A stretch of 64,000 nt of DNA from an uncultured Ruminococcus sp. GTDB taxonomy: Bacteria; Bacillota; Clostridia; Oscillospirales; Ruminococcaceae. This document shows, one piece after another, positions 9,208 through 41,937 of this stretch. The stretch covers positions 9,100-73,099 of the forward strand of contig CAMWIR010000001.1 of the NCBI GenBank assembly GCA_947174365.1, in the 5' to 3' direction. The notes below the pieces were generated by a model. The model was not told the DNA's origin. It saw only the letters and a list, made by a program, of their open reading frames with translations, and searched no databases. Within the stretch, counting starts at the first letter, position 1. Each line of letters opens with the position of its first letter. A program made the position numbers and the translations under genes.

Positions 9208-9235
9208 ACCTCTTACCTCTAACATCTAACATCTG
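9208..9235. repeat. Heptamer tandem element (family A, copy 1)
   Basis: ACCTCTT ACCTCTA ACATCTA ACATCTG, preceded by hairpin GAGGTCGGAGAA-CCGC-TTCTCCGACCTC and followed directly by the RBS of the next gene. Confidence 0.75.
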
Positions 9236-9253
9236 AAAGGGGCCTGTATCCCA

Positions 9254-9892
9254 ATGAACAATACCGCATTAAACAACATTTCCTACGGACTGTACGTACT
9301 TACCGCCTCGGAAAACGGCAAAGACAACGGCTGCATAATCAACACCCTTATGCAGCAGACAAGCAGTCCATTGCGTGTGTCGGTGACGGTGAACAAGGCA
9401 AATCTCACCTGCGATATGATAGCAAACACAGGGCTGTTCAATGTCTCAATGCTGGACACCACTGCACCATTTGAGCTTATAAAGCATTTCGGCTTTCAGA
9501 GCGGCAGAAATGCACAAAAGTTTGAAGTGCCCGAAGTGTACGGATTTAAGCCCTATTATGCCGACAACGGTCTGATATATTTAAAGGAGCATACCTGCGC
9601 ATTCCTTTCCTGCAAGGTCATATCGCAAACCGACCTTGGCAGCCATATTATGTTTATGGCGGAGGTCACAGACGGTGATACAATAAGCAAAAATCCGCCC
9701 ATGACCTATGCCTATTATCATGCCAACGTCAAGCCGAAGCCCGCTCAGAAGCCCGAGGACAATACTCAGAGCAAAAAAGGCTGGGTCTGCAAAATATGCG
9801 GATATATTTACGAGGGCGAAGAGCTGCCGAAGGATTATGTCTGCCCAATCTGCAAGCACGGTGCGGAGGATTTTGAGAAAATCAACGGTTAA
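9254..9892 (+). CDS. Flavin reductase-like protein with C-terminal rubredoxin-like domain
   Basis: ISYGLYVLTA...NGCIINT, HFGFQSGR, GSHIMF; C-terminal WVCKICGYIY...CPICKHG. Confidence 0.9.
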   Translation: MNNTALNNISYGLYVLTASENGKDNGCIINTLMQQTSSPLRVSVTVNKANLTCDMIANTGLFNVSMLDTTAPFELIKHFGFQSGRNAQKFEVPEVYGFKPYYADNGLIYLKEHTCAFLSCKVISQTDLGSHIMFMAEVTDGDTISKNPPMTYAYYHANVKPKPAQKPEDNTQSKKGWVCKICGYIYEGEELPKDYVCPICKHGAEDFEKING

Positions 9893-10086
9893 TCTTGTCG
9901 TTTTGCCCTAAATTTGGCAAGACTTGCCGACAGAAATTTGCCGCCGGGTATGACCAAAATGTGAAAATATTGTAAAATTACAAAAAAGCCTTGCAATTTA
10001 AGGTGAGTTGTGATAAAATAATAATGTTATGAAATTTTGAGAGATAAAAAATTCCCTCAATGAACGAATTTAAGGAGGTGTGCCCC

Positions 10087-10275
10087 ATGGCAAAATGCGA
10101 TATTTGCGGAAAGGGCGTTACTTTCGGTATAAGGGTTTCCCATTCCCACCGCCGTTCCAACAGAGCGTGGAAGCCCAATGTAAAGCGTGTAAAGGCTATT
10201 GTTGACGGTTCTCCCAAGCATATTCATGTATGCACAAGATGCCTGCGCTCGGGTAAGGTAACCAGAGCAAGCTGA
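10087..10275 (+). CDS. rpmB: 50S ribosomal protein L28 (Cys-containing form)
   Basis: MAKCDICGK...VSHSHRRSNRAWKPNV...CTRCLRSGKV; RBS AAGGAGG. Confidence 0.97.
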   Translation: MAKCDICGKGVTFGIRVSHSHRRSNRAWKPNVKRVKAIVDGSPKHIHVCTRCLRSGKVTRAS

Positions 10276-10327
10276 ATGTAAGCTTTTTTATAACCGAAAC
10301 GTACGTACTTTAGGTAAGAAATTTCAA

Positions 10328-10380
10328 AAGCAAGAGGCAAGAATAGAGCGTGGAAATGCTCCTGTTCTTGCTTTTTTCTT
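10328..10380. repeat. Family B hairpin element (copy 2), downstream of rpmB
   Basis: AAGCAAGAGGCAAGAATAGAGC...GCTCCTGTTCTTGCTTTTTTCTT. Confidence 0.65.
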
Positions 10381-10636
10381 TTTTGTACGCTGAATCTTGT
10401 GTTGACTTTATTCTAAGCTGCAAAATTTTACCCGAAAATATATTGCAGAAATTCGGCAAGAAATACCTTTCCTGCTTTTTGTTTCCGATAGTGAAAATTC
10501 ACAGTGAACGGGGCATAATTTTGTGGGAAAAGATAACGGCATTTTCTTGAAATAAAAGGTGAAATGTGGTATAATAACTATATATAGCCTTTGGCATATT
10601 ATATGCCGCTTCGGACGGCACGAAAGGAACGGACAA

Positions 10637-11338
10637 ATGAACATTGTAAATAAAGTCAAGGTAACTATCTGCGGCAAGGATTACAGTCTGCAAACGGACG
10701 AGACCCCCGAATACATATCTGCGCTGGCGGCAGAAACCGAAAAGCAGATATTCGATCTTATCAAACTGAAGCCCGGCTTCGGCATTCAGAATGCGTCTGT
10801 GTTCGTGGCGCTGACCGCTCTTGACGAGGCGCACAAGGCAGAGAGCAATATCGAAAATATCCGCGCTCAGATAAAAAGCAGCGTAAGCGAGGCGGGCAAG
10901 GCAAGGGCTGCCAAGGAAAAGCTGGCGGCTAAGGTAAAGGACCTGGAGAGCCGCATTGCCGAGCTGGAAAAGGAAAACAAGGAGCTTAAAAAGCGCACTG
11001 CATTCGACTGCGAGCAACTGGTATTGGAAAACACCGTTACTCCCGCTGTGACCGTTTATGCGGGAAATGATACGAGGGATAAGTCAGAGGGCGGCGCTGC
11101 TTCGGAAAATGCCGGAAACAATGCTGCCGATGTTAAAAATCCCGACAGCGTTAATAATGAAAATGCCGGCAATAGCGCCGACAACGGCAATGCAGACAAT
11201 ACAGACGTCAAATCTTCTGCTTCCGCAAAAACTCCCGAGGAAAGCAACCGGGAACAAGACCAAACCTTGTCGTCGGGGAACAGCTCCGGCGACTGTGTCA
11301 GTAGAGGCTCGGACGGAAAAGCAGGGGCAAAAAGGTAA
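10637..11338 (+). CDS. zapA: ZapA-family cell division protein with coiled coil and low-complexity C-terminal tail
   Basis: NKVKVTICGKDYSL...YISALA...ASVFVALTALDE, followed by a coiled coil and an Asn/Ala/Ser-rich tail. Confidence 0.75.
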   Translation: MNIVNKVKVTICGKDYSLQTDETPEYISALAAETEKQIFDLIKLKPGFGIQNASVFVALTALDEAHKAESNIENIRAQIKSSVSEAGKARAAKEKLAAKVKDLESRIAELEKENKELKKRTAFDCEQLVLENTVTPAVTVYAGNDTRDKSEGGAASENAGNNAADVKNPDSVNNENAGNSADNGNADNTDVKSSASAKTPEESNREQDQTLSSGNSSGDCVSRGSDGKAGAKR

Positions 11339-11553
11339 AAAGAGCAAGGGGAAAAAGGGCGGCTCCTCCGTTAAGTTGGGTGAGTCCACAAAACTGATAA
11401 CCCCCTCGGAAAAGCCTCGCAAGACAATGGTTCTCTCCGAGGCGGAGGAACAGCGGCTGCGGGTAATGGCGATAGTTCATAAAATGATAACCTGAAAAAA
11501 GGCTTAAATCCTCCGCATAAAATGCAGGACACAAAAGGAAATGATTTGTTGAT

Positions 11554-13785
11554 ATGGGTCTACCGGAAATTCTCGCTCCCGCAGGGGGCATGGAAAGCGT
11601 TTACGCCGCAGTGCGCTGCGGTGCCCACGGCGTTTATATAGGGGGCAGCGAATTTTCCGCCAGGGCGGGGGCGGAAAATTTTTCGGAGGATATGCTGTAT
11701 GAAGCGGCAAGGTACTGTCATCTTCACGGGGTGAAAATTTACCGTGCCATGAACACGGTGATTTTCGACCGCGAGCGGGAAAGCTTTCGGGAGCAGGTGA
11801 TAATTACCGCTAAGGCGGGCTTTGATGGCTTGATAATACAGGATCTCGGGGGGCTTGCCATTGCGAAAAAAGCCGTGCCAAATATGCCCTTTCATGCCTC
11901 AACGCAGATGACGATACACACCCCCTTGGGTGCGAAGGAAGCAGCTAAGATAGGCTTTTGCAGGGTAGTGCCCGCCAGGGAGCTGACCCTCGGGGGTATT
12001 GCGGAAATTTGCAGGGCAATGGAAGAGGTAAACTGCGAAACGGAGGTTTTCGTTCACGGGGCGCATTGTATGTGCCTTTCGGGGCAGTGCTACATGAGCA
12101 GCGCCATAGGCGGCCGCAGTGCAAACAGGGGACGGTGTGCTCAGAGCTGCCGTTTGCCAATATCTGCCATCGGTGATGTTGGCGTTGCCTGCGTTGCCGG
12201 CAGCGCCGCTAAATGCAGCGGAAAAAAGGTTGAACGGTATGACCTGTCGCTGAAAGATATGTCCCTGGTGGAGCATTCGGAAGAGCTTGCGGCGGCAGGG
12301 GTGGATTCCTTTAAGATAGAGGGACGTATGAAGCGCCCCGAATATGTGGCGGCGGCGGTGACGGCACTGCGGCACGCTCTTTACGGCAGCGAAAATAAGA
12401 ACGCCGACTTTCGGCACAGTCGGCGCGATAAGTGCGATAAGCAAGATATGCGGAGGCTGGAGGCTGTATTTTCCCGAAGCGGCTTTACGGACGGCTATCT
12501 TACGGGCAAAATAGGCAGGGAAATGTTCGGCAGCCGCACAAAAGAAAATGTAACGGCGGCGGGAGACGTTCTGGGAGAGCTTGCCGCTCTTTACGCCGAT
12601 GAGGTAAGGGATGCAGAGTTGGACTTTGCTCTTACGGTGCACGAGGGAACGGCTGTGCGGCTTGATTTTCACTGCAAAAACGACAGAGGCGGGGAAGTAT
12701 CGGGCGGCAATGTATCGGGTATTGTGACCGGGGATATCCCCGAAAAAGCGCAGCGGCGGGAATTTACGGAAGCGGACGGGGTCAAAAATCTCTCGAAGCT
12801 CGGGGGGACGCGGTACCGGCTCGGGAAAATTTCCTGCGATATTTCCCCGGGGCTTGCTCTTTCCGCTGCCTGTGTGAACGACCTGCGCCGCAGGGCTTGC
12901 GAATTGGCGGACAGTCTGACTGTTCAAAAAAATACTCCCGTGTATGAGATAAACGAGGATATTTCAGCAGATGTTCACAAAAATACGGCGGAAATACCGA
13001 AAGATACAGAAGAAATTAAATTCCGCATAATTACCCACAGCGCAGAGACAGCCATTGCAATGGCGAAAAAAGATGACGTTGAATTTGCAATATTGCCCGT
13101 TTCGGAATGCGAAAAGGTTGAGGCTGCCGCTTTTGCAGGAAAGATAACAGTAAGCCTGCCCGATATTGTAACGGACGAAAGTGCGCTGATAAAGCGGTTG
13201 GGCGGTCTTTGCGAAAAAGGATATACTCATTTTTTCTGCAAGAATTTCACACACATGGGGGCGCTGAAAGCCCTTGGAAATGTGCATATCCACGGAGGCT
13301 GGGGAATGAACATTGCCAATGGTGACAGCCTTAAAATGCTGTACGAAATGGGCTTTGAGGACACTTGCCTTTCCTTTGAGATGAAAGCGGGACAGGTGAG
13401 ATATGCGGCGAAAAATTCCCCTGTTCCCGTGGGGATATATGCTTACGGCAGACTGCCGCTTATGGTTGTGAGGAACTGCCCCGTAAAGGCAGCGGTCGGT
13501 TGCAAGGACTGCAAAAGCGGCGGCGGCAGCAACGGCAGCAAGCTGACCGACAGGGACGGCAGGGTTTTCCCCGTGCACTGCGAGGGAGAATATGTTCGGA
13601 TACTCAACTGCGATATATTGCAGGTCTGCGATAAACTCGAAGATTTTGTGGGCGTTTCTTTCGGGCTGCTGGATTTTACGGATATGGATATTTCCGAGGC
13701 ACGGAAAGCCCTTGACGCTTGCATTTCCCGTGAAAAGTCCTGCGGGAGATTTACAAGGGGACTTTATTACAGGGGGATAATTTGA
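11554..13785 (+). CDS. Peptidase U32-family Fe-S hydroxylase (RlhA-like, long form)
   Basis: EILAPAG, GAHGVYIG, HASTQMTIH, EVFVHGAHCMCLSGQCYMS..IGGRSANRGRCAQSCR, FKIEGRMK. Confidence 0.9.
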   Translation: MGLPEILAPAGGMESVYAAVRCGAHGVYIGGSEFSARAGAENFSEDMLYEAARYCHLHGVKIYRAMNTVIFDRERESFREQVIITAKAGFDGLIIQDLGGLAIAKKAVPNMPFHASTQMTIHTPLGAKEAAKIGFCRVVPARELTLGGIAEICRAMEEVNCETEVFVHGAHCMCLSGQCYMSSAIGGRSANRGRCAQSCRLPISAIGDVGVACVAGSAAKCSGKKVERYDLSLKDMSLVEHSEELAAAGVDSFKIEGRMKRPEYVAAAVTALRHALYGSENKNADFRHSRRDKCDKQDMRRLEAVFSRSGFTDGYLTGKIGREMFGSRTKENVTAAGDVLGELAALYADEVRDAELDFALTVHEGTAVRLDFHCKNDRGGEVSGGNVSGIVTGDIPEKAQRREFTEADGVKNLSKLGGTRYRLGKISCDISPGLALSAACVNDLRRRACELADSLTVQKNTPVYEINEDISADVHKNTAEIPKDTEEIKFRIITHSAETAIAMAKKDDVEFAILPVSECEKVEAAAFAGKITVSLPDIVTDESALIKRLGGLCEKGYTHFFCKNFTHMGALKALGNVHIHGGWGMNIANGDSLKMLYEMGFEDTCLSFEMKAGQVRYAAKNSPVPVGIYAYGRLPLMVVRNCPVKAAVGCKDCKSGGGSNGSKLTDRDGRVFPVHCEGEYVRILNCDILQVCDKLEDFVGVSFGLLDFTDMDISEARKALDACISREKSCGRFTRGLYYRGII

Positions 13786-13903
13786 TTAATAATTAATAAT
13801 GAGCGGAACGGCGGGGGAGCAGTTGTATAGTGATAAGCAATTCTCAAAAATAAAATAAAAAGAAAGCAGATAAACCAACCTTAACATACAAAGAGGATTT
13901 CAA

Positions 13904-16279: not shown

Positions 16280-16282
16280 CAA

Positions 16283-16996
16283 ATGCCCGAAATAACGCCC
16301 ATTGCGGTCACCCGGAATGATTTTGACGAGAAATTCGGCATACCAAGGCAGGCGGGGCTGTGCAGCAGTGTTTCAAGGATAGTTTTCCTGCCCGGATACC
16401 GTGATCCCGATTCGCTGAGAGGGCTGGAGGGCTTTTCCCACATCTGGCTGCTGTGGGAATTCGGAGAGGCGAAAATGCACGGCAAATGGTCGCCCACGGT
16501 GCGTCCTCCGAGGCTTGGAGGAAATAAGCGGGTGGGGGTGTTTGCCACACGCTCGCCCTTTCGTCCCAATTCCATAGGGCTTTCTTCGGTAAGGCTTCTG
16601 GAGATTCGTCACGGCACGCCCGATGGGTCTGTGCTATACGTATCGGGAGCGGATATGATGAACGGCACGAATATATATGACATAAAACCCTATCTTGCCT
16701 ACACCGATTCTCACCCCGAGGCGCTGTCGGGCTTTGCGCTGACGGAGGGAGGAAGGCTGTCTGTGGATATTCCCGAAGATATTGCAGGGCTGTTACCCGC
16801 GGACAAGCTGCAAGCCCTTAAAGAGATACTGTCACAAGATCCCCGTCCCCAGTATCAGAATGACTCTGCAAGAGTCTACACCATGGCATACGGGGGAATG
16901 GATGTGAGTTTTGTTGTTGAGGGGGGTTGTGTAAGGGTCACAGATGTTAAAGCAAAAATTAATTGCAAAATGCAAAAAATTTGTAAGCCGAAATAA
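16283..16996 (+). CDS. trmO: tRNA m6t6A37 methyltransferase TrmO/TsaA
   Basis: FGIPRQAGL, GLEGFSHIWLLWEF, TVRPPRLGGNKRVGVFATRSPFRPNSIGLS, DIKPY. Confidence 0.92.
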   Translation: MPEITPIAVTRNDFDEKFGIPRQAGLCSSVSRIVFLPGYRDPDSLRGLEGFSHIWLLWEFGEAKMHGKWSPTVRPPRLGGNKRVGVFATRSPFRPNSIGLSSVRLLEIRHGTPDGSVLYVSGADMMNGTNIYDIKPYLAYTDSHPEALSGFALTEGGRLSVDIPEDIAGLLPADKLQALKEILSQDPRPQYQNDSARVYTMAYGGMDVSFVVEGGCVRVTDVKAKINCKMQKICKPK

Positions 16997-17049
16997 TTTT
17001 GATTTACGCAAAAAAATCCGGCGCACAGCACCGAAAACGTTTTTTTCTG

Positions 17050-17077
17050 ACCTCTTACCTATAACATCTAACCTCTT
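17050..17077. repeat. Heptamer tandem element (family A, copy 2)
   Basis: ACCTCTT ACCTATA ACATCTA ACCTCTT. Confidence 0.7.
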
Positions 17078-17137
17078 AATGGGCAATGTACACAAAAATA
17101 CTCTCCAATATTTTTATATTTCAAACGTTTACGCCTC

Positions 17138-17166
17138 TTGACATTTCTTTCCGAGTATGATATACT
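17138..17166 (+). promoter_or_regulatory. Near-consensus extended -10 sigmaA promoter with no downstream ORF
   Basis: TTGACA-17-TATACT with TG extension. Confidence 0.7.
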
Positions 17167-17334
17167 TATACTTGCAACAAATTATTGATGCGGCCAACTA
17201 ATAGAACCTGACCGTGTTATGGCTTGCCGTGAATGTTACAATCTGTATAACTTCTTATTTGCAGTACATTTTGTATAAAAATCTGTACAAAATTTGTGCA
17301 AGTATACAAAATGTAAAAAGTTGCCTTACAGATA

Positions 17335-17363
17335 TTGACAAATCCGGAAAAATGAGTTATAAT
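17335..17363 (+). promoter_or_regulatory. Perfect-consensus sigmaA promoter of a candidate sRNA
   Basis: TTGACA aatccggaaaaatgagt TATAAT (17-nt spacer). Confidence 0.85.
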
Positions 17364-17368
17364 ATAAT

Positions 17369-17491: not shown

Positions 17492-17548
17492 GCTCTCTTA
17501 TAAGCCGGTTTTTTACGGTTAGTAAATTTCGGAAAATATTCAGTGATT

Positions 17549-19665: not shown

Positions 19666-19680
19666 GGCGGAGGGACAAGA

Positions 19681-21205: not shown

Positions 21206-21901
21206 ATGAAACACGGTAAGAATTATATAGAAAGCTCAAAGCTTGTTGACAAGAACAAGCTCTATGACAGCGCAGAGGCTCTGGAGCTGGCCTGCAAGGC
21301 TGCAAAGGCAAAGTTTGACGAGACTGTTGAGGTACACATCCGTCTGGGCGTTGACTCCCGTCATGCCGATCAGCAGGTAAGAGGCGCAGTTGTACTTCCC
21401 AACGGCACGGGCAAGAAGGTAAGAGTTCTTGTTATCTGCAAGGAGGACAAAATGGAGGCTGCTACGGCGGCAGGCGCCGAATATGTAGGCGGCCAGGATT
21501 ACATTGACAAGATCATGAAGGAAAACTGGATGGACTTTGACGTGCTTATCGCTTCCCCCGATATGATGGGTATGGTAGGCCGTATCGGTAAGATATTAGG
21601 TCCCCGCGGACTTATGCCTAACCCCAAGGCAGGCACTGTTACCCCCGATGTTGCAAAGGCTGTAACAGAGGCTAAGGCAGGTAAGATCGAGTACCGTCTT
21701 GACAAGTCCAACATCATTCACTGCCCTATCGGCAAGGTTTCTTTCGGCAAGGATAAGCTTTCCGAGAACTTCGAGACACTGCTTGAGGCTGTAGTTAAGG
21801 CTAAGCCTGCCGCTGCAAAGGGAACTTATATCAAGTCCTGCTCGGTGGCTTCCACTATGGGCGTTGGTATCCCTGTTTCCACAACCAAGTACGGAGTTTG
21901 A
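21206..21901 (+). CDS. rplA: 50S ribosomal protein L1
   Basis: [16 protein letters not shown]...[32 protein letters not shown]. Confidence 0.98.
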
Positions 21902-21904
21902 GTT

Positions 21905-21975
21905 AGAAGCAAGAATGCGAATCCGCAGGTTCGCCAAGAAACAAGAGGCAAGAGTTTTTCTTGCCTTTGTTTTTT
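21905..21975. repeat. Family B hairpin element (copy 3), downstream of rplA
   Basis: AGAAGCAAGA...AAGAAACAAGAGGCAAGAG-TTTTTCTTGCCTTTGTTTTT. Confidence 0.7.
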
Positions 21976-22117
21976 TGTCGTTAATGCACAAGACAGCTGC
22001 CGTATTTTGTTAATAATCACAATGTATTATTAAAAAATACCGTTTTTCTTGAAAATTTATGTGATGTGTGATATAATATTTTAAATTTCGAAATAGGTAA
22101 AATTATGAGGTGATTTT

Positions 22118-23248
22118 ATGAGATTAAAAAGATCGGCAAGATCGGTATTTTCACTGGCAATGGCTCTGGCTGTTATTTCAAGCGTTTCCGCTTCGGCTTT
22201 TGCTCACCCGGGCAGGACGGACAGCAGCGGCGGACACTACAACAGGTCTACAGGCGAATATCATTACCATAACGGCGGGAGTTCGTCGGGTTCAAGCTCG
22301 AGGTCGACAAGTACAAACACGGGGAGCTCGTCAAGTTCAAGGTCGGGCAGCAGCTCTTCAAGCTCAGCAAACTCAGCAAGCTCACGCAAGGCCAAATGGG
22401 ACGGCGACAAATACTGGAACGGCAGCAAATATGTCACGGGCTTTTGTACCATAGACGGTAAAAAATACTGCTTTGACAGCAGCGGAAAGCTTTACAAAAA
22501 CGAATGGGTAACAAACAGTTCGGGCGAACGCTTTTACATAGGCAGCGACGGCACCGTGTGCACGGGCTGGCACCATGTGGACGGGCACAAATACCACCTT
22601 TGCGACGACGGCAGTATGAGCACAGGCTGGTGCAAGGTGGACGGCAAAAGTTACTTTTTGGGCAATGACGGCATTGCACGCACGGGTTTCAGGAGCATTG
22701 ACGGCAAGGTGTACTGTTTCGACAAGAACGGCGCTATGTGCACAGGCTGGCAGAAGATCGACGGCAGCACCTATTATTTCAAAAGCAGCGGAGAACGTGT
22801 TTCGGGAAAGGTGAAAATAGACGGCAAGGTCTACACCTTTGATGAAAACGGCAGGCTGCAAAATGCAGCTTCCACGGCTGCGGCGGCAGGACAGACCTCC
22901 GCTTTGAAGTGGGGCATGACCATGGACGAGGTAATTGAGGCAAGGCAGCTGGACAAGTATGTGATAGATGAAGATGTGATAATTACAACGGATAAGGTCA
23001 TCAGTGACTGTTATTTCTTTTATGAGGATTCCCTCTGCGGCTACGGCAAATGGACTCTCTACTCAAAGAGTTCCCTTAAAAGCTTTAAGAAAACTCTGGA
23101 GGACGACGGCTGGGAAAATGCAGGCAGCAGCTATGAGGACGGGGTAAGCTATATATATTACACCAAGGACGGTCATATTACAGTGATATTCTATGATGAC
23201 GCTTCGCTGTTCCGGGTAAGATATGCCGATGATTTTATGGATATGTGA
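22118..23248 (+). CDS. Secreted YHYH-domain protein with Ser-rich linker and cell-wall (choline/glucan-type) binding repeats
   Basis: Signal peptide, HPGRTDSSGGHYNRSTGEYHYHN, poly-Ser, about six ~20-aa repeats of type TGWxKIDGKxYYFxxxG. Confidence 0.88.
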   Translation: MRLKRSARSVFSLAMALAVISSVSASAFAHPGRTDSSGGHYNRSTGEYHYHNGGSSSGSSSRSTSTNTGSSSSSRSGSSSSSSANSASSRKAKWDGDKYWNGSKYVTGFCTIDGKKYCFDSSGKLYKNEWVTNSSGERFYIGSDGTVCTGWHHVDGHKYHLCDDGSMSTGWCKVDGKSYFLGNDGIARTGFRSIDGKVYCFDKNGAMCTGWQKIDGSTYYFKSSGERVSGKVKIDGKVYTFDENGRLQNAASTAAAAGQTSALKWGMTMDEVIEARQLDKYVIDEDVIITTDKVISDCYFFYEDSLCGYGKWTLYSKSSLKSFKKTLEDDGWENAGSSYEDGVSYIYYTKDGHITVIFYDDASLFRVRYADDFMDM

Positions 23249-23254
23249 GAACGC

Positions 23255-23310
23255 AGAAGCAGGAAATCAAGAAGCATGAGGCAGGAAAAAGTTTCTTGCC
23301 TCCTTTTTGC
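23255..23310. repeat. Family B hairpin element (copy 4, degenerate)
   Basis: AGAAGCAGGAAATCAAGAAGCATGAGGCAGGAAA...TTTCTTGCCTCCTTTTTGC. Confidence 0.55.
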
Positions 23311-23408
23311 ATTTGACATAGTATACGATTTGACTATGCGGGCTTGTCCGCTTTTTCAAAGCGGGGAGAATTTGCATAAATTATATAAAATTTCGGGAGG
23401 TAAAAAAT

Positions 23409-25296: not shown

Positions 25297-25331
25297 GGAG
25301 GTTAGAGGTTAGAGGTTAGATGTGAAAGGTG
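25297..25331. repeat. Heptamer tandem element (family A, copy 3, reverse orientation)
   Basis: GGAGGTT AGAGGTT AGAGGTT AGATGTG AAAGGTG. Confidence 0.75.
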
Positions 25332-27290: not shown

Positions 27291-27318
27291 AGAAGTTAGA
27301 GGTAAGAGGTTAGAAAGT
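27291..27318. repeat. Heptamer tandem element (family A, copy 4, reverse orientation)
   Basis: AGAAGTT AGAGGTA AGAGGTT AGAAAGT. Confidence 0.75.
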
Positions 27319-27325: not shown

Positions 27326-27407
27326 GTCCTCTCATTTTCATTGAGAAATAGAATAAAGAAACAAGAGGCAAGATGTTGGTTTTCTTCATCTAGCCTTTTG
27401 CTTCTAA
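27326..27407. repeat. Family B element (copy 5); left copy of an ~80-bp imperfect direct repeat
   Basis: CTCATTTT...GAGAAA...CAAGAGGCAAGATG...TTCATCTAGCCTTTTGCTTCTAA, matching 28338..28420. Confidence 0.75.
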
Positions 27408-27413
27408 ATGTGA

Positions 27414-28337: not shown

Positions 28338-28420
28338 GTCGCTCATTTTGAGAAAATTGAAATAACACAAAAAGCAAGAGGCAAGATGAACATACCATTC
28401 ATCTTGCCTCTTGCTTCTAA
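28338..28420. repeat. Family B element (copy 6); terminator-like, directly 3' of tRNA-Tyr
   Basis: Perfect 19-bp stem AAGCAAGAGGCAAGATGAA / TTCATCTTGCCTCTTGCTT. Confidence 0.8.
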
Positions 28421-28531: not shown

Positions 28532-28559
28532 ATTCTAACCTCTTACCTCTAACATCTAA
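28532..28559. repeat. Heptamer tandem element (family A, copy 5) in the tRNA spacer
   Basis: ATTCTAA CCTCTTA CCTCTAA CATCTAA. Confidence 0.75.
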
Positions 28560-28561: not shown

Positions 28562-28635
28562 TCGGGGCGACAGGACTTGAACCTGCGGCATCTTGCTCCC
28601 AAAGCAAGCACTCTACCAAACTGAGTTACGCCCCG
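28562..28635 (-). tRNA. tRNA-Pro(UGG), CCA not encoded
   Basis: Reverse complement CGGGGCGTAACTCAGTTTGGTAGAGTGCTTGCTTTGGGAGCAAG...GGTTCAAGTCCTGTCGCCCCGA. Confidence 0.95.
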
Positions 28636-33344: not shown

Positions 33345-33358
33345 GGCGGTGAGGACGC

Positions 33359-34222: not shown

Positions 34223-34276
34223 TTATACATTTTGTATATTTAAGTGAATTTATACAGCATATATATTTTTATTTTT

Positions 34277-34313
34277 AGAGGTTATAAAATCTAACCTCTT
34301 ACCTCTAACTTCT
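34277..34313. repeat. Heptamer tandem element (family A, copy 6) inside the atp operon spacer
   Basis: GGTTATAAAATCTAACCTCTTACCTCTAACTTCT (34280..34313) is the exact reverse complement of 41648..41681. Confidence 0.8.
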
Positions 34314-34396
34314 TCCGCAGAAATCTGCATAACAGTGTAAATGAAATGCGGGCAGAGTAAGGAGCAACTCAAAACAAACAAACTTCTAAGAGCTGA

Positions 34397-35806
<1,410 letters not shown>

Positions 35807-35820
35807 GGGGGTAGAGTAAT

Positions 35821-36228
35821 ATGGCAACTCCCTTTAAGCTTACGGTGATAACGCCCGAAAAGACCTTTTTCGACGATAACGCCGAGCAGGTAATCGTGCG
35901 CACCACCGAGGGCGACATAGGTATACTTGCGAACCACATAAGCCTTGTGGCAAGTCTGCCTTCGGGACCTATGAAAATAACCACCGAGAGCGGCAGCCGT
36001 GCCGCAGCGGTTTCCGCAGGACTGATAAAGGTCGGCGGAAACGAGGTGCACATTTTCGCAGACGCTGTGGAATGGGCTGACGAGATTGACCTTGACTGGG
36101 CGCAGCGCTCCAGAGAAAACGCCGAGCAGAGAATTGCCGCAAAGAACAGCGAGCGTGACTTTGCTCTTGCGGAGCTCAAGCTCAAGCGTGCCCTTAACAG
36201 GATCAGCGTGCATAATAATTTAAAGTAA
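35821..36228 (+). CDS. atpC: F1 subunit epsilon
   Basis: LTVITPEK, GDIGILANH, C-terminal helices LKRALNRI. Confidence 0.96.
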   Translation: MATPFKLTVITPEKTFFDDNAEQVIVRTTEGDIGILANHISLVASLPSGPMKITTESGSRAAAVSAGLIKVGGNEVHIFADAVEWADEIDLDWAQRSRENAEQRIAAKNSERDFALAELKLKRALNRISVHNNLK

Positions 36229-36268
36229 AATGTTTAATTAAATCCAAGTCATACTTATAAAGAAGTTT

Positions 36269-36306
36269 AAGCCCCGAAGCAATTATTGATAACTGCTTCG
36301 GGGCTT
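36269..36306. terminator. Terminator hairpin after the atp operon
   Basis: AAGCCCCGAAGCA...TGCTTCGGGGCTT. Confidence 0.85.
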
Positions 36307-36369
36307 ATTGTTTGTATCCGATTACTCGCATAAACAGGAATTCAGCGATTTACCTTAGTAATAACCCAT

Positions 36370-37338
36370 TTATCCTTTTCTTCCCTTCATCATCGGAAAC
36401 ACCTTTGCATGCAGCAGCCCGACCAAATTAACAGCAATTTTCCTCGGCAGCATTTTGTAAACCGCTGCCGCAATTTTTTTCTTTCTCGGGCGATTGTCGT
36501 TCATAGGGGGTATATCACGCCATGGGGACATATTTTTATATCTTGCCCATTCGGAAGAATACGGGTGCTCACATCCCTTGACCCAGGGTCTGACCGATAA
36601 AAAGCTTGATGTAAAATGAACGATCGCAGGATCTTTTTTCGCCTCCCGTATCTCTTTTTCCGAATAATATTCCTTTGGCTGTCGAAAAGCCATAAGATCA
36701 TTGTATGAAAAATCAAAAAGCGCGGTATAACAATTGTAGCAAGGGTGGACGCAAAGCATTCTTTCGGAGCATACGCCGTTTATCACATCCTGATCGGGAT
36801 ATGTCACAGAATTAATGTGAGCTTTAAGAAAATCCATAAATTCATCCTCGTGCCATTTGTTCGGATCAATAAGCAGCACCCCGCTGTTGCAGTACAGATC
36901 ATGCTCACCCATTCCAAGGTTTTTCAGATAATTTTTGCTTACGCAGTCCCGCACTCCCGCTGCGGAATAGCCCCGGGTATCCGTCATGTAAAATTTTTCC
37001 AAATTTCTGCGCACCAGCACATCGCAGTCCAGATAAAGCACTCTGTCAATTTCCTTCGGCAAAAGCCGCCGCAGATATATCCTTGTAAAAGCGCTTTTGC
37101 TCCACCGCAGAGACCGCACCTCCTGAGGGACCTGCACATTTTCCACGGAAATATACGATATTTTCCGGTTATATTTATCCCCTATCGAATTTATTTTTTT
37201 CTTATTGCCGCTGCTGATCTTGTCGTCAAGGATATAAACCGCAATATCCTCACATTTTTTATTATTTTCAAACAACGAGATTATTGATATGCCAAGCATT
37301 TGGGAAAAATTATCATCGCTTGCATAAACTACATTCAT
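36370..37338 (-). CDS. Glycosyltransferase family 8
   Basis: MNVVYASDDNF, RVLYLDCD, YCNSGVLLI, PDQDVIN, IVHF...RPW. Confidence 0.92.
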   Translation of the reverse strand: MNVVYASDDNFSQMLGISIISLFENNKKCEDIAVYILDDKISSGNKKKINSIGDKYNRKISYISVENVQVPQEVRSLRWSKSAFTRIYLRRLLPKEIDRVLYLDCDVLVRRNLEKFYMTDTRGYSAAGVRDCVSKNYLKNLGMGEHDLYCNSGVLLIDPNKWHEDEFMDFLKAHINSVTYPDQDVINGVCSERMLCVHPCYNCYTALFDFSYNDLMAFRQPKEYYSEKEIREAKKDPAIVHFTSSFLSVRPWVKGCEHPYSSEWARYKNMSPWRDIPPMNDNRPRKKKIAAAVYKMLPRKIAVNLVGLLHAKVFPMMKGRKG

Positions 37339-37464
37339 ATTAAAAGCTCCATTTTTTAACAGCATTACCAAGATTACCCAAGAAAGCATACGCCCTCTTG
37401 GGTAATGATGTACTGCGCTGCACACTGTTTTCGGTATCTGCGCTGTAAAGGGATTTAGTCAAAT

Positions 37465-37752
37465 TCAGTCGGTAGCAGGGTCGTCGGCATATGTAGCCAC
37501 GGAATCGGCGGTTTCCTCACCCTTGTCGGCCTCGGCGGAGGTCTTTTCTTCATCAACGACCTTGTTTGCAGCCTCATCGTAAACGCTCTTTACGAAATCG
37601 GTTGCACCGTTCACAACCTTGATACCCGCAGCCATAATATCAACCGCCGTCTTGCGGACAGTTTCCGATTCTGCGATCTTCTGCCCTACCAGAACAGCCG
37701 CCGCACCCGCTAACGTGCAGCATATTTTAACGCGCTGAAAATAGCCTAACAT
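37465..37752 (-). CDS. Small hypothetical protein (DUF1490/DUF6110-like)
   Basis: N-terminal hydrophobic/amphipathic helix and acidic tail; own promoter TTGACA-17-TATAAT upstream on the minus strand. Confidence 0.65.
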   Translation of the reverse strand: MLGYFQRVKICCTLAGAAAVLVGQKIAESETVRKTAVDIMAAGIKVVNGATDFVKSVYDEAANKVVDEEKTSAEADKGEETADSVATYADDPATD

Positions 37753-37968
37753 AAAAAATCATTCCTTTCATAATGAGGGTTTCCCCTTCAGGAGAAAATC
37801 CCGACAGCTTTTGTTTACAATTAAATTATACTCCCAAAATCCTTGCCTGTCAATAGATATTGCCGTTTTTTAATCAGATTTTAATGTGGTGTAATGTTAT
37901 TTTAATATAAGCTTAGGAAAAATTAAAAATTATTAATGGTTGTCGGTTTTACAGTGTAAGCTGCCATT

Positions 37969-38823
37969 TTAAAGCGAGCGGTAATAATTCTGCATCTCCG
38001 CCGCATCTTCCGTTTGCGTGCCCGAGCTTTCGCAGATTATCGTGGGCGACCAGCCCCGACGGTAAATCTCCTCCAAAAGAGGTTCATAATCCGGACCGAA
38101 GCCGTTGTTATTTTCAAAAGTAACGTGGCGCTTTTCGCCGCCCGGGACAGTAAATTCTATCTTGGAAAAATGGCTGTGGAAAATCTTTGCCCTATCTAAG
38201 CCCACGCCGTTTTCCATAAGATCAAGCATTTTGGCGTAGTCCTCTTTGCCTTTTATCCCGCCGAATGTGCGGGCGTTAAGGTGTCCGAAATCCACAGTGG
38301 GCAAAAAGCTGTCGTCCACCTTGCAAATTTCAATGACCTCTTCCAAAGTCCCCAGCTGATTTACCTTTCCCATAGTTTCAGGGCAGCAGATAATATCCGA
38401 AAGACCCGCCTCGTCAAGAGCTTTTTTCGCCCTTTTCATAGTGTCCTTCGCCAGTGCCAGCGCCTCTTCACGGGAAATTTTGGCGCATGAGCCGCTGTGA
38501 ATAACTATTCTTTGCGCTCCCATTGCTTTGGCAGCTTTGGCGGATTCCAGAATATAGCTCACAGAGTTCAGACGTTTTTCCTCGTCTGTTCCCGAAAGGG
38601 ATATGAAATAAGGAGCATGCAGGGATAATGTCATACCTGCGTTTTTAAAGGCTGTGCCTATTTCCTCCGCTGCCTTTTGTGATATCCTTACTCCCTGCCC
38701 GCACTGGTATTCCATATGGGTAAGTCCGAATTTCTCCAAATACTCAGGGCTCTGAACGGATCTTTTATATCCCATGGTTTTAAAGCTGTCTCCGCTGCCT
38801 GCGGGTCCGAATGTTGCCGACAA
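37969..38823 (-). CDS. nfo: Endonuclease IV-like AP endonuclease (TIM barrel)
   Basis: LHAPYFISL, VIHSGS, PETMG, DFGHL, HSHFS, RH, ICES metal ligands; TTG start. Confidence 0.8.
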   Translation of the reverse strand: MSATFGPAGSGDSFKTMGYKRSVQSPEYLEKFGLTHMEYQCGQGVRISQKAAEEIGTAFKNAGMTLSLHAPYFISLSGTDEEKRLNSVSYILESAKAAKAMGAQRIVIHSGSCAKISREEALALAKDTMKRAKKALDEAGLSDIICCPETMGKVNQLGTLEEVIEICKVDDSFLPTVDFGHLNARTFGGIKGKEDYAKMLDLMENGVGLDRAKIFHSHFSKIEFTVPGGEKRHVTFENNNGFGPDYEPLLEEIYRRGWSPTIICESSGTQTEDAAEMQNYYRSL

Positions 38824-38927
38824 TTAAAACACATCCTTTTTGTTTTTTCGGTAAAGCACCGATCAAACCGTTTTTAAAATATTTTGATCTCACAAACGGT
38901 TATTGGCGGCTTTTCCCTAACCTCCGA

Positions 38928-41624
38928 CTATCTGTTTATGTACAGATCGGCTATGTCCTTTTTCCACTCGTCCGCTATGGCTGTGCAGGTATCTATATCG
39001 CAATCCTCGGCGGCGTTTTTGAGATTTGTGAAAAATTCCCCGAATACATTGTCGTATACAAAGCCGTTCATCTTTTCTATTACATCGTCTATCATAAGCG
39101 TGTCAAAATTCTCCAGCGCTTCTTTAAGCTCGTCAAGCATATCCATGATCTCCACAGGATCGGCAGCTCTGTGTATTTCCTTGACCTCCGAATCGGGGAA
39201 CACGGGGGAAAGTATACGCTTATAGTCTTTGTACATCTTCAGCATAGCTCCATGCTTTGCCTTGATAAACTCGGTGTTTTGTTCCTTGCCCGCTTTTTCC
39301 AGTTCAGCTGCCATAGTGGCAAGGTCGTCTGCGCCGATCTGGCGGGAAGTGCTTTTAAGAGAATGTACCTCAATGGTATACTCCGACCACAGCTCGTTTT
39401 TGAAATAATCCTCGATAACAGCCGACTTTTTCTCGATCGTCATATAGTATTCCTTGAGCACAGCCATATAGAGACTTTCGCTGCCAAGAAGATTTACGGC
39501 GCTCTCTATATTGAGACCCTCTATGCGCAAGGGAGCGTTCTCTTTATTTTCCTTTTCAGAGGCTTCCGCCTCGTCCTTATTAATTGGAATAAGCTTTTCA
39601 GACGGCAGCCATTTGCGCACCATGGAGATAATATCCTTGGCGTCCATTGGCTTTGGCAGGAAATCGTTCATACCTTCCCGCAGGAACATTTCCCTTGCTC
39701 CTCCTATGGCATTGGCGGTAAGGGCTATTATGGGGACGTTGGCATATTCGGGCATAAGACGGCGGATTATACGTGTAGTCTCCACGCCGTCCACCTCGGG
39801 CATCATATGATCCATAAATATGATGTCGTACATCATGCCCTTGACCTTTTCAATGGTTTCTCCTGCATTCATGGCTGTGTCCACCCGCATATTGAGCGGG
39901 GCGATAAGCCCTTTGGCTACGGTAAGGTTGACGGAGTTATCGTCAACTATGAGAATATTGGCGTCGGGGGCGGTAAAGGCAAAGTCCTCCTCGCTTTCCG
40001 TTTCCCCATGAGCATATTCGGGGATAAGCCCCATGGCTGCAAACAGGTTCAGGAAATACACGGGCTTTCGGATTATCCTTACATCCTCGGAGGTATCATC
40101 GTGGAAATTGCTGCCGAAATTATCTATGATAATGCACTTTACAGGCTCCTTGCCCGGGTTGAAGAATTTGCTTATTTTATCCGAATAAAGAGTGCGTTCC
40201 ACGATAAGATAATCGTGATATTCCGAGAGGCTGCTTGCCTCCTCCATATCGGTAGCGGCAATGCCTATTCTTTCAAGGTCAATCATTACCTGCTTTTTAA
40301 GGTAGCCGTTGTTGATAAGCACGGCTGTTCTGGGCAGGTTGTTCCTCCGGATATTCATTGCGGATTCGCTCACCAACTGCTGGGGGAGGACAAAGGAGAA
40401 GCAGCTGCCTTTATTGTATTCGCTTTCCACGCTGATATCGCCGTTCATAAGGGAAAGAAGCTGGCGGCATATGGCAAGCCCCAGACCCGTGCCCTCAATA
40501 TTGCGGTTTCGCTTGCTGTCCAGCTGCTGGAATGAGCGGAAAAGCTTGTTCAGATCCTCACGCTTTATGCCGCTGCCCGTGTCGGTAACGGAGACCTTCA
40601 TCATCACCGTATCTCCCCCGAAGGGCACGCACTCCATTTTAAGCACTACCTGTCCTTGCGTGGTGAATTTTACGGCATTGGTGAGCAGGTTCATGATTAT
40701 CTGCTGTATACGGACGTTATCCCCAAGAAGTCTGTGAGGCATATCGGGAGAAATATCCATAATGAATTCGATATTTTTTGAGCCGATACGGGTGCTGATT
40801 ATGCTGGCGATATCGTTGATAAGGCTCAGCGGCTCGTATGTAACGGGCGTTATTTCCATTTTTCCCGATTCTATTTTGGAGAAGTCGAGTATATCGTTGA
40901 TAATTACCAGCAGGCTTTTGGACGCCGATCTGATCTGGTGTATATATTCCCTTGCGGCAGGGGACATTTCCTCCCTCAGCGCCATTTCCGACATACCCAG
41001 AGCCGCATTCATGGGGGTGCGTATCTCGTGGCTCATATTGGCAAGAAAGTCGGATTTTGCACGGGCGATCTTTTCTATTTCAAGGTTGCTCAGATAGAGC
41101 ATATAGCTGTTATAGGCAATATTTGAGAGAATGGCTGCCATGGTGTAGAGGAATTTTGCCGAACGGTCTACGGTCTCCCTGTCGACTATGCGCACCTTGC
41201 AGGCTGCGTCGTAATACTCGCCTATATCTATCCCCAGATCCGATGCGATACGGGCAAACTTGGCAGGGTCGGGGGGATTTGTCAGCACCTGTCCGCCTAT
41301 AAAGCTGCCCACCATTCGCCCGTTGGCTATAATGGGGGCGGCAAAGTCCACCAGTCCTGCATGGCAGGTGTATACGCTGGCTGTGCCCTCGGTCATTGCC
41401 TGCTCTGCTCCCATTTTATCGCAGGCATTGCAGCGCTTGTTTCCTTTAACGGTGCATCGGGTATATTTCATGCAGAAGTCGGTAAAGTTCGAGCCTTTTG
41501 TTACGGCAACTCCGTCCTTATCGGTGGTCAGCGCTGCCATTCCCGTCATTTCGGAAAATGCGTCCTGCAATTGCTGGAGAATGTCAACGTTTATAAGATC
41601 GGTTAATTTGAGCTCAGCATTCAT
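38928..41624 (-). CDS. Cytoplasmic hybrid histidine kinase: PocR-HisKA-HATPase-REC-Hpt
   Basis: PocR domain (LQQLQDAFS..TG, FC...C..CD, YTCHAGLVDFAAPI), FLANMSHEIRTPMN, IFMDHMMP, Hpt VHSLKSTSRQIGA. No TM helix. Confidence 0.92.
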   Translation of the reverse strand: MNAELKLTDLINVDILQQLQDAFSEMTGMAALTTDKDGVAVTKGSNFTDFCMKYTRCTVKGNKRCNACDKMGAEQAMTEGTASVYTCHAGLVDFAAPIIANGRMVGSFIGGQVLTNPPDPAKFARIASDLGIDIGEYYDAACKVRIVDRETVDRSAKFLYTMAAILSNIAYNSYMLYLSNLEIEKIARAKSDFLANMSHEIRTPMNAALGMSEMALREEMSPAAREYIHQIRSASKSLLVIINDILDFSKIESGKMEITPVTYEPLSLINDIASIISTRIGSKNIEFIMDISPDMPHRLLGDNVRIQQIIMNLLTNAVKFTTQGQVVLKMECVPFGGDTVMMKVSVTDTGSGIKREDLNKLFRSFQQLDSKRNRNIEGTGLGLAICRQLLSLMNGDISVESEYNKGSCFSFVLPQQLVSESAMNIRRNNLPRTAVLINNGYLKKQVMIDLERIGIAATDMEEASSLSEYHDYLIVERTLYSDKISKFFNPGKEPVKCIIIDNFGSNFHDDTSEDVRIIRKPVYFLNLFAAMGLIPEYAHGETESEEDFAFTAPDANILIVDDNSVNLTVAKGLIAPLNMRVDTAMNAGETIEKVKGMMYDIIFMDHMMPEVDGVETTRIIRRLMPEYANVPIIALTANAIGGAREMFLREGMNDFLPKPMDAKDIISMVRKWLPSEKLIPINKDEAEASEKENKENAPLRIEGLNIESAVNLLGSESLYMAVLKEYYMTIEKKSAVIEDYFKNELWSEYTIEVHSLKSTSRQIGADDLATMAAELEKAGKEQNTEFIKAKHGAMLKMYKDYKRILSPVFPDSEVKEIHRAADPVEIMDMLDELKEALENFDTLMIDDVIEKMNGFVYDNVFGEFFTNLKNAAEDCDIDTCTAIADEWKKDIADLYINR

Positions 41625-41640
41625 ATATCCGTACTCCTTT

Positions 41641-41681
41641 AGAGGTTAGAAGTTAGAGGTAAGAGGTTAGATTTTATAACC
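41641..41681. repeat. Heptamer tandem element (family A, copy 7, reverse orientation)
   Basis: AGAGGTT AGAAGTT AGAGGTA AGAGGTT AGATTTT; abuts the RBS of the PocR kinase gene. Confidence 0.8.
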
Positions 41682-41774
41682 GCCTGTAACTTATCCTCTT
41701 TAAATAATTTTTATGCCTTGTTTTGTGCATATATACAAATATTTCAAACATCATAACATTTTTGCATAAAGCTA

Positions 41775-41803
41775 TTGACAAGCAAATCAAAATCTGTTAT
41801 AAT
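41775..41803 (+). promoter_or_regulatory. Perfect-consensus sigmaA promoter with no plus-strand ORF, facing the polA 3' end
   Basis: TTGACA agcaaatcaaaatctgt TATAAT. Confidence 0.75.
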
Positions 41804-41903
41804 ATTATTATAGCGAAACACATTTTTGCCTAACGCCCAAGCTCATCACATTGTCTCACTCAAACAGTCAATCAAAATAAAGCAAATCCCGTCCCATCAC
41901 TCT

Positions 41904-41937
41904 CTTCTAACCTCTTACCTCTAACATCTAACCTCTG
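41904..41937. repeat. Heptamer tandem element (family A, copy 8)
   Basis: TCTAACCTCTTACCTCTAACATCTAACCTCT, directly after the polA stop codon. Confidence 0.8.

Follow-up and report, generated by a model that had tools for sequence, protein, structure and literature searches.

Heptad arrays in untranslated gene margins

We examined a 64,000-nucleotide stretch of DNA (the window) from a Clostridia metagenome-assembled genome, here called G000 (3.02 Mb in 223 contigs, 46% G+C, 99.7% complete), whose type, judged by the best relatives of its PocR kinase, is Oscillospiraceae/Ruminococcus. The spacers beside several genes of the window carry short tandem arrays of a degenerate heptanucleotide. Pfam identifies these genes as flavin reductase/rubredoxin (9254), TrmO, SDR, an EAL protein, AtpG/AtpD, a PocR kinase and PolA (41938–44511), in agreement with the labels that an earlier reading of the letters alone (the original prediction) had given to the 9254, EAL, SDR, AtpG/AtpD, PocR kinase and PolA genes. 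The heptad unit is TCT-N-R-Y-N, with CCUCU on one strand of an array (the CU strand) and AGAGG on the other (the AG strand). The window holds eight arrays of 3–5 imperfect heptads each and one remnant. Matches to the 19-mer core CTAACCTCTTACCTCTAAC with at most three mismatches number 12, against 0.01 expected from shuffled sequence, and period-7 arrays in the window are also listed by Tandem Repeats Finder. The original prediction had placed eight copies and a remnant near 38917; read in context, all of them are there. It had also noted 34 identical bp in two copies 7 kb apart, and the copies at 34277 and 41641 indeed share 34 nt at 100% identity (C1:43379-43412 against query 749-782).

We searched the whole genome with three or more tandem copies of TCT-N-R-Y-N as the pattern and found 89 arrays, compared with none in the reversed-sequence control; a relaxed pattern (two or more units plus TCT) gave 141 and again none in the control. 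The element is thus dispersed, as had been proposed. Two flavours are evident, flavour A (TCTAACC/TCTTACC/TCTAACN; 53 arrays), with a preferred heptad order TCTAACC-TCTTACC-TCTAAC, and flavour B (TCTTGCC/TCTTGCT; 36 arrays); a TCCTGCC variant of the heptad is also present. On the gene calls made for this analysis (2713 genes, genome 84% coding), 71 of the 89 arrays fall wholly between genes, 16 extend over a gene edge and 2 are within genes. Flavour-A copies have no common flanks in G000 except for a purine-rich patch 8–14 nt upstream and an AT-rich linker. The arrays form a lineage-restricted family of short dispersed repeats, with about 90–140 copies per 3-Mb genome, almost only in untranslated gene margins. 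We conclude that the feature is real, far above chance and apparently without earlier description for this lineage; in the literature searched, no paper contains the longer B-type strings.

Arrays point towards neighbouring genes

The pyrimidine strand runs 5′ to 3′ towards the neighbouring gene. Of 67 intergenic arrays, 49 have a gene within 35 nt of the CU 3′ end and 7 have one that close to the CU 5′ end, and median gene distances are 21 nt for the CU 3′ end and 99 nt for the CU 5′ end (p = 2 × 10−5). A symmetric test restricted to open reading frames (ORFs) counted 70 adjacency events on the CU 3′ side versus 19 on the other, and at sister-species loci the count was 18 versus 0. Gene starts and gene ends are faced with the same polarity. 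From the copies in the window, the original prediction had read the CU form as preceding genes and the AG form as following gene and tRNA ends, and this holds genome-wide, with 30 arrays at a Shine–Dalgarno (SD) sequence and 20 at a stop codon. Random or replichore-driven orientation had been named beforehand as grounds for giving up the idea. Neither was found: 34 of 77 arrays have their CU strand on the G-rich strand (p = 0.36), where 78% of genes lie, and we ruled out the replichore as the driver of orientation. The outcome is a simple, testable rule in which the pyrimidine strand runs into a gene, the purine strand follows stops and tRNAs, and replication direction is irrelevant. Flavour B, the inverted purine arm that often precedes an array and the exact fit to gene boundaries go beyond the original prediction.

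Arrays in mode 1 (30 arrays) have a gene downstream on the same strand and end 12–35 nt before its start codon and 3–6 nt before the SD. All 20 flavour-A arrays of this mode end in TCT[AGT]AA with a G-rich SD within a few bases, so that the SD begins at the position of the next heptad. In mode 2 (20 arrays) the neighbouring gene lies on the opposite strand with its stop codon 1–28 nt away, and its mRNA carries the AG array (GGTTAGA GGTAAGA ..., with a TAG or TAA in each heptad) directly after the stop codon, or even supplying it. The AG form stands directly after a stop codon in these 20 cases, compared with about 2 for the CU form. Three arrays trail tRNA 3′ ends in the AG sense, within tRNA operons that have their own promoters.

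Partner arms and hairpins

Arrays are complementary to the 30 nt upstream of them beyond expectation, with −7.4 kcal/mol for flavour A and −10.7 kcal/mol for flavour B versus −4.2 and −6.7 kcal/mol for random intergenic 30-mers (p = 4 × 10−6); complementarity of arrays to downstream sequence was not enriched. The typical unit consists of an AG arm (one inverted heptad), a loop of 4–25 nt and the CU array, in which the first heptads pair and the last 2–3 remain free. A clear partner arm is missing from about half of the arrays, mainly flavour-A ones that follow stop codons. Long-range AG:CU pairing as a general design was rejected, with only one pair within 400 nt in G000. The reverse complement of purine arm, loop and pyrimidine arm is again purine arm, loop and pyrimidine arm, and this symmetry, combined with a lengthened gene-facing arm, would give one polarity rule for gene starts and gene ends alike.

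Flavour B often shows, in the sense of the upstream gene, a stop codon, an AG array, a loop, a CU arm TCTTGCCTCTT and a T-run. This order occurs at no fewer than eight loci, for example C7:31583, C9:17293, C27:4566, C43:2248, C54:10696 and window positions 21903–21975. The stems measure 9–12 bp and can be read as hairpins on both strands. By sequence, flavour-B hairpins with a T-run look like intrinsic terminators. The Rfam covariance models, Gut-1 among them, gave only tRNAs above the gathering threshold at the arrays. Two flavour-B hairpins of the window (27355–27408 and 28367–28420) scored below threshold to the animal mir-31 model (E 0.002–0.008), matches that we dismissed as a chance resemblance of GAGGCAAGAUG to the model, and other Rfam matches up to E = 1 were chance microRNA-like ones on flavour-B hairpins only.

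Copies in the window and their turnover among sister species

Three sister species served for comparison, with identities of about 92% (G011), about 90% (G008) and about 78% (G014). Most array sites persist in them with altered content, and flank identities are 78–94%. The positions in the window are collected in Table 1.

Table 1. Heptad arrays and related hairpins in the window
Feature	Position	Strand	Context
Flavour-A CU array TCCGACC TCTTACC TCTAACA TCTAACA TCT	9204–9234	+	End of 5′ leader, flavin reductase/rubredoxin gene (ATG 9254)
Degenerate flavour-A CU array	17046–17079	+	50 nt past trmO stop codon (16996), upstream of next promoter; abuts no gene
Flavour-B module	21903–21975	+	Directly after stop codon TGA 21899–21901
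Flavour-A array, AG-rich on +	25297–25320	-	Between convergent SDR (stop 25230) and EAL (stop 25443) genes
Flavour-A CU array	27291–27314	-	112 nt upstream of EAL gene start, upstream of EAL promoter
Flavour-B hairpin AACAAGAGGCAAGATG ... CATCTAGCCTTTTGCTT	27357–27410	.	Degenerate in G000, perfect in G008
Flavour-A array	28534–28557	+	AG strand begins 4 nt past 3′ end of tRNA-Pro (28562–28635, -)
Short AG arm TTAGAGGTTA (34275–34284), AT loop, flavour-A CU array (34290–34313)	34275–34313	+	atpG–atpD spacer, ATP synthase operon
Remnant, 1.5 heptads (CCTAACCTCCGA)	38917–38930	+	AG strand directly past TAG stop codon of PocR kinase gene
Flavour-A CU array, ends TCTAAAGGAG	41641–41671	-	Leader end of PocR hybrid histidine kinase gene (38928–41624, ATG 41624)
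Flavour-A array	41906–41936	+	AG strand starts 1–4 nt past polA stop codon (41938–41940)

The array before the flavin reductase/rubredoxin gene ends TCTGAAAGGGG, in register with the SD; a promoter-like TTGATT-17-TGGTATACT precedes it at 9143–9171, the 3′ arm of a hairpin at 9187–9210 is its first degenerate heptad, and the array is kept in G011 and G008. The array past trmO is present in the same two species with heptad substitutions and is missing in G014. After the stop codon at 21899–21901, the flavour-B module runs from AG heptads GTTAGAAGCAAGA through a small hairpin to a terminator hairpin AAGAGGCAAGAG-TTTTT-CTTGCC and a T-run, and in G008 the hairpin unit is tandemly duplicated. Between the SDR and EAL genes, the orthologous site reads GGTCAGA GGCAAGA GGCAAGA in G008 and GGTTAGA GGCTAGA GGCTAGA in G014, with flanks that cannot be aligned; the variable bases are TT/TT/TT in G000, TC/CA/CA in G008 and TT/CT/CT in G014. 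The 27291 site before the EAL gene carries exactly one heptad more in G008, a 7-nt indel. The array at tRNA-Pro occupies the tRNA-Pro/tRNA-Tyr spacer of a tRNA operon with its own promoter, and G014 has an array at the same site. Across orthologous sites, arrays keep the AGAGG/CCTCT skeleton next to non-coding DNA that has diverged beyond alignment.

Flavour and unit number vary at orthologous sites, and arms change together with their arrays. In the atpG–atpD spacer, G000 shows flavour A, G011 shows flavour B together with an arm that matches it, and G014 shows a variant; in 13 array-negative species of the genus this spacer measures 82–103 nt and has no array. At C7:19791 the three flavours A, B and AGCC occupy one site in three species whose flanks are 90–96% identical. 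The array at the polA end is a 30/31 inverted repeat of the one in the PocR kinase leader, which is itself kept in G011, G008 and G014. All four species have the pair, and in G008 both members have changed in parallel to TCTAGCC/TCTGAC. Very close species pairs thus show flavour replacement at fixed sites. Gain and loss also occur: the C7:21023 array is found in G000 only, and several sites are empty in G014. The leader of a gyrB/parE-like gene (C18:14519 in G000) holds a single flavour-A array in G000 and no array in G014; in G011 and G008 it has tandem duplications of 110–120 nt, and each of these includes a flavour-B array. At G008 locus L130:3705-3845, which corresponds to window positions 11551–11554, a 124-nt insertion that lies 3 nt before the ATG brings a B array and a new SD. 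The unit has ends like terminal inverted repeats (TIRs; ACTGTTTCC ... GGAAACA), a GATA direct repeat and paralogs of 75–80% identity in G008 and G011, and looks like a miniature inverted-repeat transposable element (MITE). The sequence comparisons fit slippage, seen as 7-nt indels, together with ectopic conversion or replacement between copies and probably occasional moves of larger units.

Adjacent genes, transcription and the ribosome site

Mode-1 genes are a mixed housekeeping set that includes thrS, fliG, flbD, flhA, ppa, dnaJ, gyrB, gyrA and a second gyrB/parE-like gene, as well as pfk, rsfS, an NFACT/RqcH gene, fmt, NAPRTase, a GH26 enzyme, the PocR kinase and others. Pfam domains were found in 9 of the 10 mode-2 genes scanned, among them PolA, CarB, Alr and SpoIVA. 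The array-adjacent genes have no common functional theme; the roughly 50 array-abutting genes include gyrA, gyrB, the second gyrB/parE-like gene and polA, and genes for DNA topology and replication look, post hoc, to be in excess. Since many array-preceded genes are operon-internal (fliG, flbD, flhA, dnaJ, gyrA, fmt and atpD), the CU strand is very likely transcribed and part of polycistronic mRNA, in which it would make up the last 20–35 nt ahead of the SD.

We then compared array-bearing leaders with 400 control leaders. The predicted unpaired probability of the ribosome-binding region was 0.52 with an array and 0.50 in controls, SD strength was 4.03 and 4.08, respectively, and leader folding and minimum free energy were also the same. 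Because these values equal those of controls, we conclude from the predictions that arrays neither replace, switch nor visibly mask the SD; the proposal that they are anti-SD modulators of translation finds no support here. Nor does the element bring its own SD: the empty G014 site before the gyrB/parE-like gene already has AAAAAGGAG, which shows the SD to be the gene's own.

Arrays as leaders of antisense or small RNAs were ruled out, with strong upstream promoters on the CU strand at 12 of 89 arrays versus 15 in the control. AG-strand promoters near arrays are those of tRNA operons, no stand-alone small-RNA gene with an AG array was seen, and the assembly contains no 16S gene. Among the 89 arrays, the polA case alone has a perfect promoter upstream on the CU strand. 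This TTGACA-17-TGnTATAAT promoter (window 41775–41803, +) stands between the two inverted arrays, its −35 and −10 boxes are invariant in the four species, and it reads through the CU array at 41906–41936 into the polA 3′ end in antisense, with no ORF or terminator visible; it may make an antisense RNA to polA.

Distribution in genus and family

The scan covered 30 genomes of the genus and, with a single genome per genus, 150 further genera of the family. Skeleton matches are abundant in 7 of the 30 (G000 with 90, G003 with 70, G008 with 165, G011 with 85, G014 with 196, G015 with 34 and G043 with 35) and close to zero in the other 23. A rough two-protein tree, with weakly supported deep nodes, distributes the positive species over at least three lineages, not one clade. 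About 7 of the 150 other genera are positive, with abundant matches in G071, G096, G107, G125, G135 and G162 and a weak signal in G168. Each positive genus has its own flavour and a fixed unit order, such as TCTGACA-TCTGACC-TCTAATT in G071 and TCTAACA-TCTAATA-TCTAATC in G162. Composite units of AG array, spacer and CU array also occur: G162 has a conserved 45-nt spacer in at least eight copies, and in G096 four or more loci agree in an arm-to-arm spacing of 163 nt. In a small sample taken from other genera, arrays lie mostly beside stop codons, tRNA ends and GC hairpins, and the SD-abutting mode is rare. The array-positive set thus comprises 13 genomes (G000, G003, G008, G011, G014, G015, G043, G071, G096, G107, G125, G135 and G162), and more than 160 relatives are negative, which gives a basis for profiling a factor that writes or reads the arrays.

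Candidate writers and readers

The idea that the arrays are footprints of a repeat-adding or mobilizing enzyme found no match among the gene families tested. The Y1/RAYT transposase (PF01797) is absent from G000 and from 6 of the 7 array-positive genomes of the genus, with control genomes scoring; in G000 this rules out an identity with the REP/RAYT system of repetitive extragenic palindromic (REP) sequences. Reverse transcriptase (PF00078) is absent from G000 and from 28 of the 30 genomes of the genus, and retro-insertion at A-runs was ruled out likewise.

Candidate readers fared no better. None of the 30 genus genomes contains the Rho RNA-binding domain (PF07497), against 9 of 14 controls; Rho appears to be missing from the genus, and Rho utilization (rut) sites, which as C-rich, G-free strands could guard gene borders, were ruled out. 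HutP (PF09021) is likewise missing from all 30 genomes, with the B. subtilis control scoring, and this excludes HutP-like NAG-N4 sites; a UAG-N4 period is found only on the AG strand of flavour A. The S23p/23S_rRNA_IVP four-helix-bundle family (PF05635) is absent from G000, G008, G011, G014, G015 and G043 and present in G003 and six array-negative genomes. With neither PF05635 nor a Gut-1 match in G000, S23p cassettes and the Gut-1 motif were set aside; in G000, inverted arrays enclose no small gene. Hfq occurs in 28 of 30 genomes of the genus, array-positive or not, and was rejected as array determinant. By these profile searches, Y1/RAYT, reverse transcriptase, HutP and S23p show no correlation with arrays.

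Interpretation

We tentatively favour, at slightly less than even confidence, the view that these are REP-like heptad hairpin repeats, driven by slippage and conversion, that serve in untranslated regions as cistron punctuation; the forms of punctuation that we infer are terminators, intercistronic stem-loops and G-free spacers before the SD. Each unit would be part of a hairpin whose 5′ arm is purine and whose 3′ arm is pyrimidine whichever strand is read, and extra heptads would lengthen the gene-facing arm and so generate the polarity. Flavour A would supply a small stem-loop with a G-free tail before ribosome sites, and flavour-B hairpins with T-runs would act as terminators. Replication slippage and ectopic conversion would maintain and reshuffle the arrays, so that copies within a genome stay alike and sites gain, lose and swap flavours quickly. 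The function may be that of cis-acting RNA punctuation at the cistron borders of a Rho-less genus: transcription termination or attenuation, stem-loop protection of 3′ ends and intercistronic regions, and a stop-codon-rich spacer before the ribosome-binding site that holds neither start codons nor SD-like motifs.

Several observations weigh against punctuation by hairpin repeats. For most flavour-A arrays that follow a stop codon there is no partner arm close by (−5.3 versus −4.1 kcal/mol in controls), which leaves the hairpin account of polarity incomplete for them, and a separate canonical terminator often follows. Some arrays lie far from genes or outside likely transcripts (17046; 27291, upstream of a promoter), and in G162 an AG/CU pair sits between a terminator and the next promoter. 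Arrays are without effect on predicted ribosome-site accessibility or SD strength, so that no translation benefit is visible in silico. The 23 of 30 species of the Rho-less genus that manage without arrays imply that arrays are dispensable. Near-identical copies in the fixed order TCTAACC-TCTTACC-TCTAAC could point to a trans-acting reader or to recent copying instead of conversion. Moreover, we infer from sequence all 5′ ends, 3′ ends and RNA processing at arrays. Under every reading the function is putative.

Some of the same facts would be expected of selfish or neutral repeats, either microsatellite-like arrays born by slippage or small MITE-like cassettes that spread and then decay, in both cases with no function to themselves. 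Their placement would then reflect tolerance (no tandem SD-like AGAGG directly before a start codon, for example), with some copies co-opted as terminator arms. We consider this explanation rather unlikely. In its favour are a patchy, polyphyletic spread (at least three lineages among the 7 positive species of 30, and about 7 of the 150 further genera), quick gain and loss as at C7:21023 and the empty G014 sites, composite copies with a conserved spacer (45 nt in G162, 163 nt in G096), the 124-nt unit that was inserted 3 nt before an ATG in G008 and has paralogs and TIR-like ends, adjacent genes without a functional theme, and predicted ribosome-site accessibility that is unaffected. Tolerance alone, however, fails to explain exact abutment on an SD or stop codon, and leaves unexplained why the CU form follows stop codons in about 2 cases compared with 20 for the AG form. 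In addition, the skeleton is kept at orthologous sites despite diverged flanks, G000 copies have no conserved flanks, and transposases of the expected kinds were not found. The fixed heptad order raises a different prospect, that the arrays are sites of a dedicated trans-acting reader of units 7 nt apart, for instance an oligomeric protein that binds single-stranded RNA or DNA, or else a small RNA with complementary sequence, and that they make up a global post-transcriptional or termination regulon that has spread horizontally and co-evolved. Each genome has a master sequence, with dozens of near-identical copies in G000, G071 and G162, and one skeleton recurs in scattered lineages. A 7-nt period is a misfit for dimeric double-strand DNA binders and suits ring proteins, of which HutP is one. 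The Hfq of Gram-positive bacteria binds AG repeats, and Hfq is present in the genome. The candidates nevertheless fail, with HutP and Rho absent, S23p missing from 6 of 7 array-positive genomes, Hfq found in array-negative species as well and no stand-alone small-RNA gene with an AG array seen. At least two flavours coexist per genome and swap at one site between species with flanks 93% identical, which specific recognition would not easily tolerate. We regard such a reader as unlikely, and consider it similarly improbable that a horizontally mobile system, in which a reader binding UCU/AGA units 7 nt apart at cistron borders controls termination, processing or translation start, governs about 100 genes in Rho-less Clostridia; in such a system, co-evolution of reader and sites would account for genome-specific flavours and a patchy distribution.

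A function at the level of DNA, as polar binding arrays for a nucleoid or topology protein, like a bacterial interspersed mosaic element (BIME), or as a directional barrier at gene borders, would account for a polarity that is independent of gene start versus end, a DNA-like property. It would also suit the arrays between a terminator and a promoter and, as a post hoc observation, the presence of gyrA, gyrB, the gyrB/parE-like gene and polA among about 50 adjacent genes. Hairpin symmetry, however, accounts for the polarity equally well, a 7-bp period sets successive units on different faces of the helix, and no candidate protein is known; we think this quite improbable. Least credible of all, and very doubtful, are anti-SD modulators or Rho-loading sites, in which CCUC-rich leaders would tie up the SD or bring Rho to incoming transcripts that are not translated. 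CCUC motifs do lie beside the SD, and a C-rich, G-free strand that points at the gene would suit a gatekeeper on incoming transcription. Yet predicted SD accessibility is the same as in controls, CCUCU is not complementary to the AGGAG SD used here, and the Rho part is refuted by the domain count of 0 of 30 genus genomes versus 9 of 14 controls.

Comparison with known repeats

TAACTGA heptamer direct repeats, described from marine Beggiatoaceae, some Cyanobacteria and Bacteroidetes, form sets of 2–6 units, with more than 100 sets per genome, in intergenic positions and mostly in one orientation just upstream of start codons (MacGregor 2015, PMC4679880). Their downstream genes have no theme, their distribution is patchy, and neither transfer mechanism nor function is known (PMC4679880). 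Set side by side, they are the closest published case in behaviour: the G000 arrays are also tandem heptamers far above chance, intergenic, close to gene starts, patchily distributed and without a gene theme. The G000 units (TCTAACC, TCTTACC, TCTAACA, TCTTGCC and TCTTGCT) differ, however, having only TAAC in common with TAACTGA after a register shift, and the host belongs to a Clostridia lineage. G000 keeps a canonical SD, and the array stops 3–6 nt before it without overlapping or replacing the ribosome site, which sets these repeats apart from ideas about SD-less initiation. A second mode (the opposite strand after stop codons and tRNAs), a frequent partner arm and at least two flavours per genome are further differences.

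The original prediction had likened the element to the short tandemly repeated repetitive (STRR) sequences of cyanobacteria. The analogy is fair; TAACTGA repeats and REP-like hairpin repeats come closer in behaviour. STRR heptamers occur in heterocystous cyanobacteria, and there are other intergenic heptameric repeats (for example Rehm et al. 2015, PMC4692102), among them Nostoc heptamers near start codons (bioRxiv 10.1101/2022.06.06.494920); a regulatory role is suspected and unproven. G000 arrays resemble them as tandem 7-nt units that are intergenic, lineage-specific and near promoters or start codons, and differ in sequence and host and in being short (3–5 units), imperfect and of fixed order, without G-quadruplex potential. 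Strict polarity to gene borders is not reported for such repeats in either source (PMC4692102; bioRxiv 10.1101/2022.06.06.494920). Heptamer repeats at gene borders, both cyanobacterial STRRs and TAACTGA, are thus known but unexplained, and a case from Clostridia (Oscillospiraceae/Ruminococcus-like) is added here.

Apart from heptamers, hairpin repeats of other kinds invite comparison. REP sequences, BIMEs and REPINs of Enterobacteria and Pseudomonas are short extragenic hairpin repeats with hundreds of copies and species-specific sequences. Often about 15 nt or less from a stop codon, they occupy positions downstream of genes or between cistrons and act as terminators and mRNA 3′ stabilizers. 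G000 arrays are like REP and BIME elements in their extragenic location at gene ends and, where a partner arm is present, in predicted hairpin formation. Their arms, in contrast, are tandem heptads, not a single imperfect palindrome; they have no GTAG tag, a tail of 2–3 unpaired heptads frequently abuts the SD, and G000 has no Y1/RAYT. MITEs are marked by TIRs, target-site duplication and a conserved interior, to which the 45-nt spacing of G162, the 163-nt spacing of G096 and the 124-nt unit of G008 may be comparable; the flanks of flavour A in G000 are not conserved. With intrinsic terminators, flavour B has in common a stem, loop and T-run directly downstream of stop codons; the stems of G000, unlike theirs, come from a common dispersed heptad vocabulary and not from unique sequences, and flavour A has no T-run. 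A Rho-less genus is a natural place in which to ask how gene borders are marked without Rho.

Segments between repeats

Two segments bounded by these repeats were observed along the way. In G000, a 740-nt segment (C38:18970-19743, locus L346) is bounded by inverted arrays and has no ORF longer than 66 amino acids and no Rfam match. In the window, two flavour-B hairpins (21903–23330) flank a gene for a protein of 376 amino acids (22118–23248); G011 (locus L120) is without this gene and has one flavour-B hairpin at the junction, a difference that indicates deletion or insertion between repeats.

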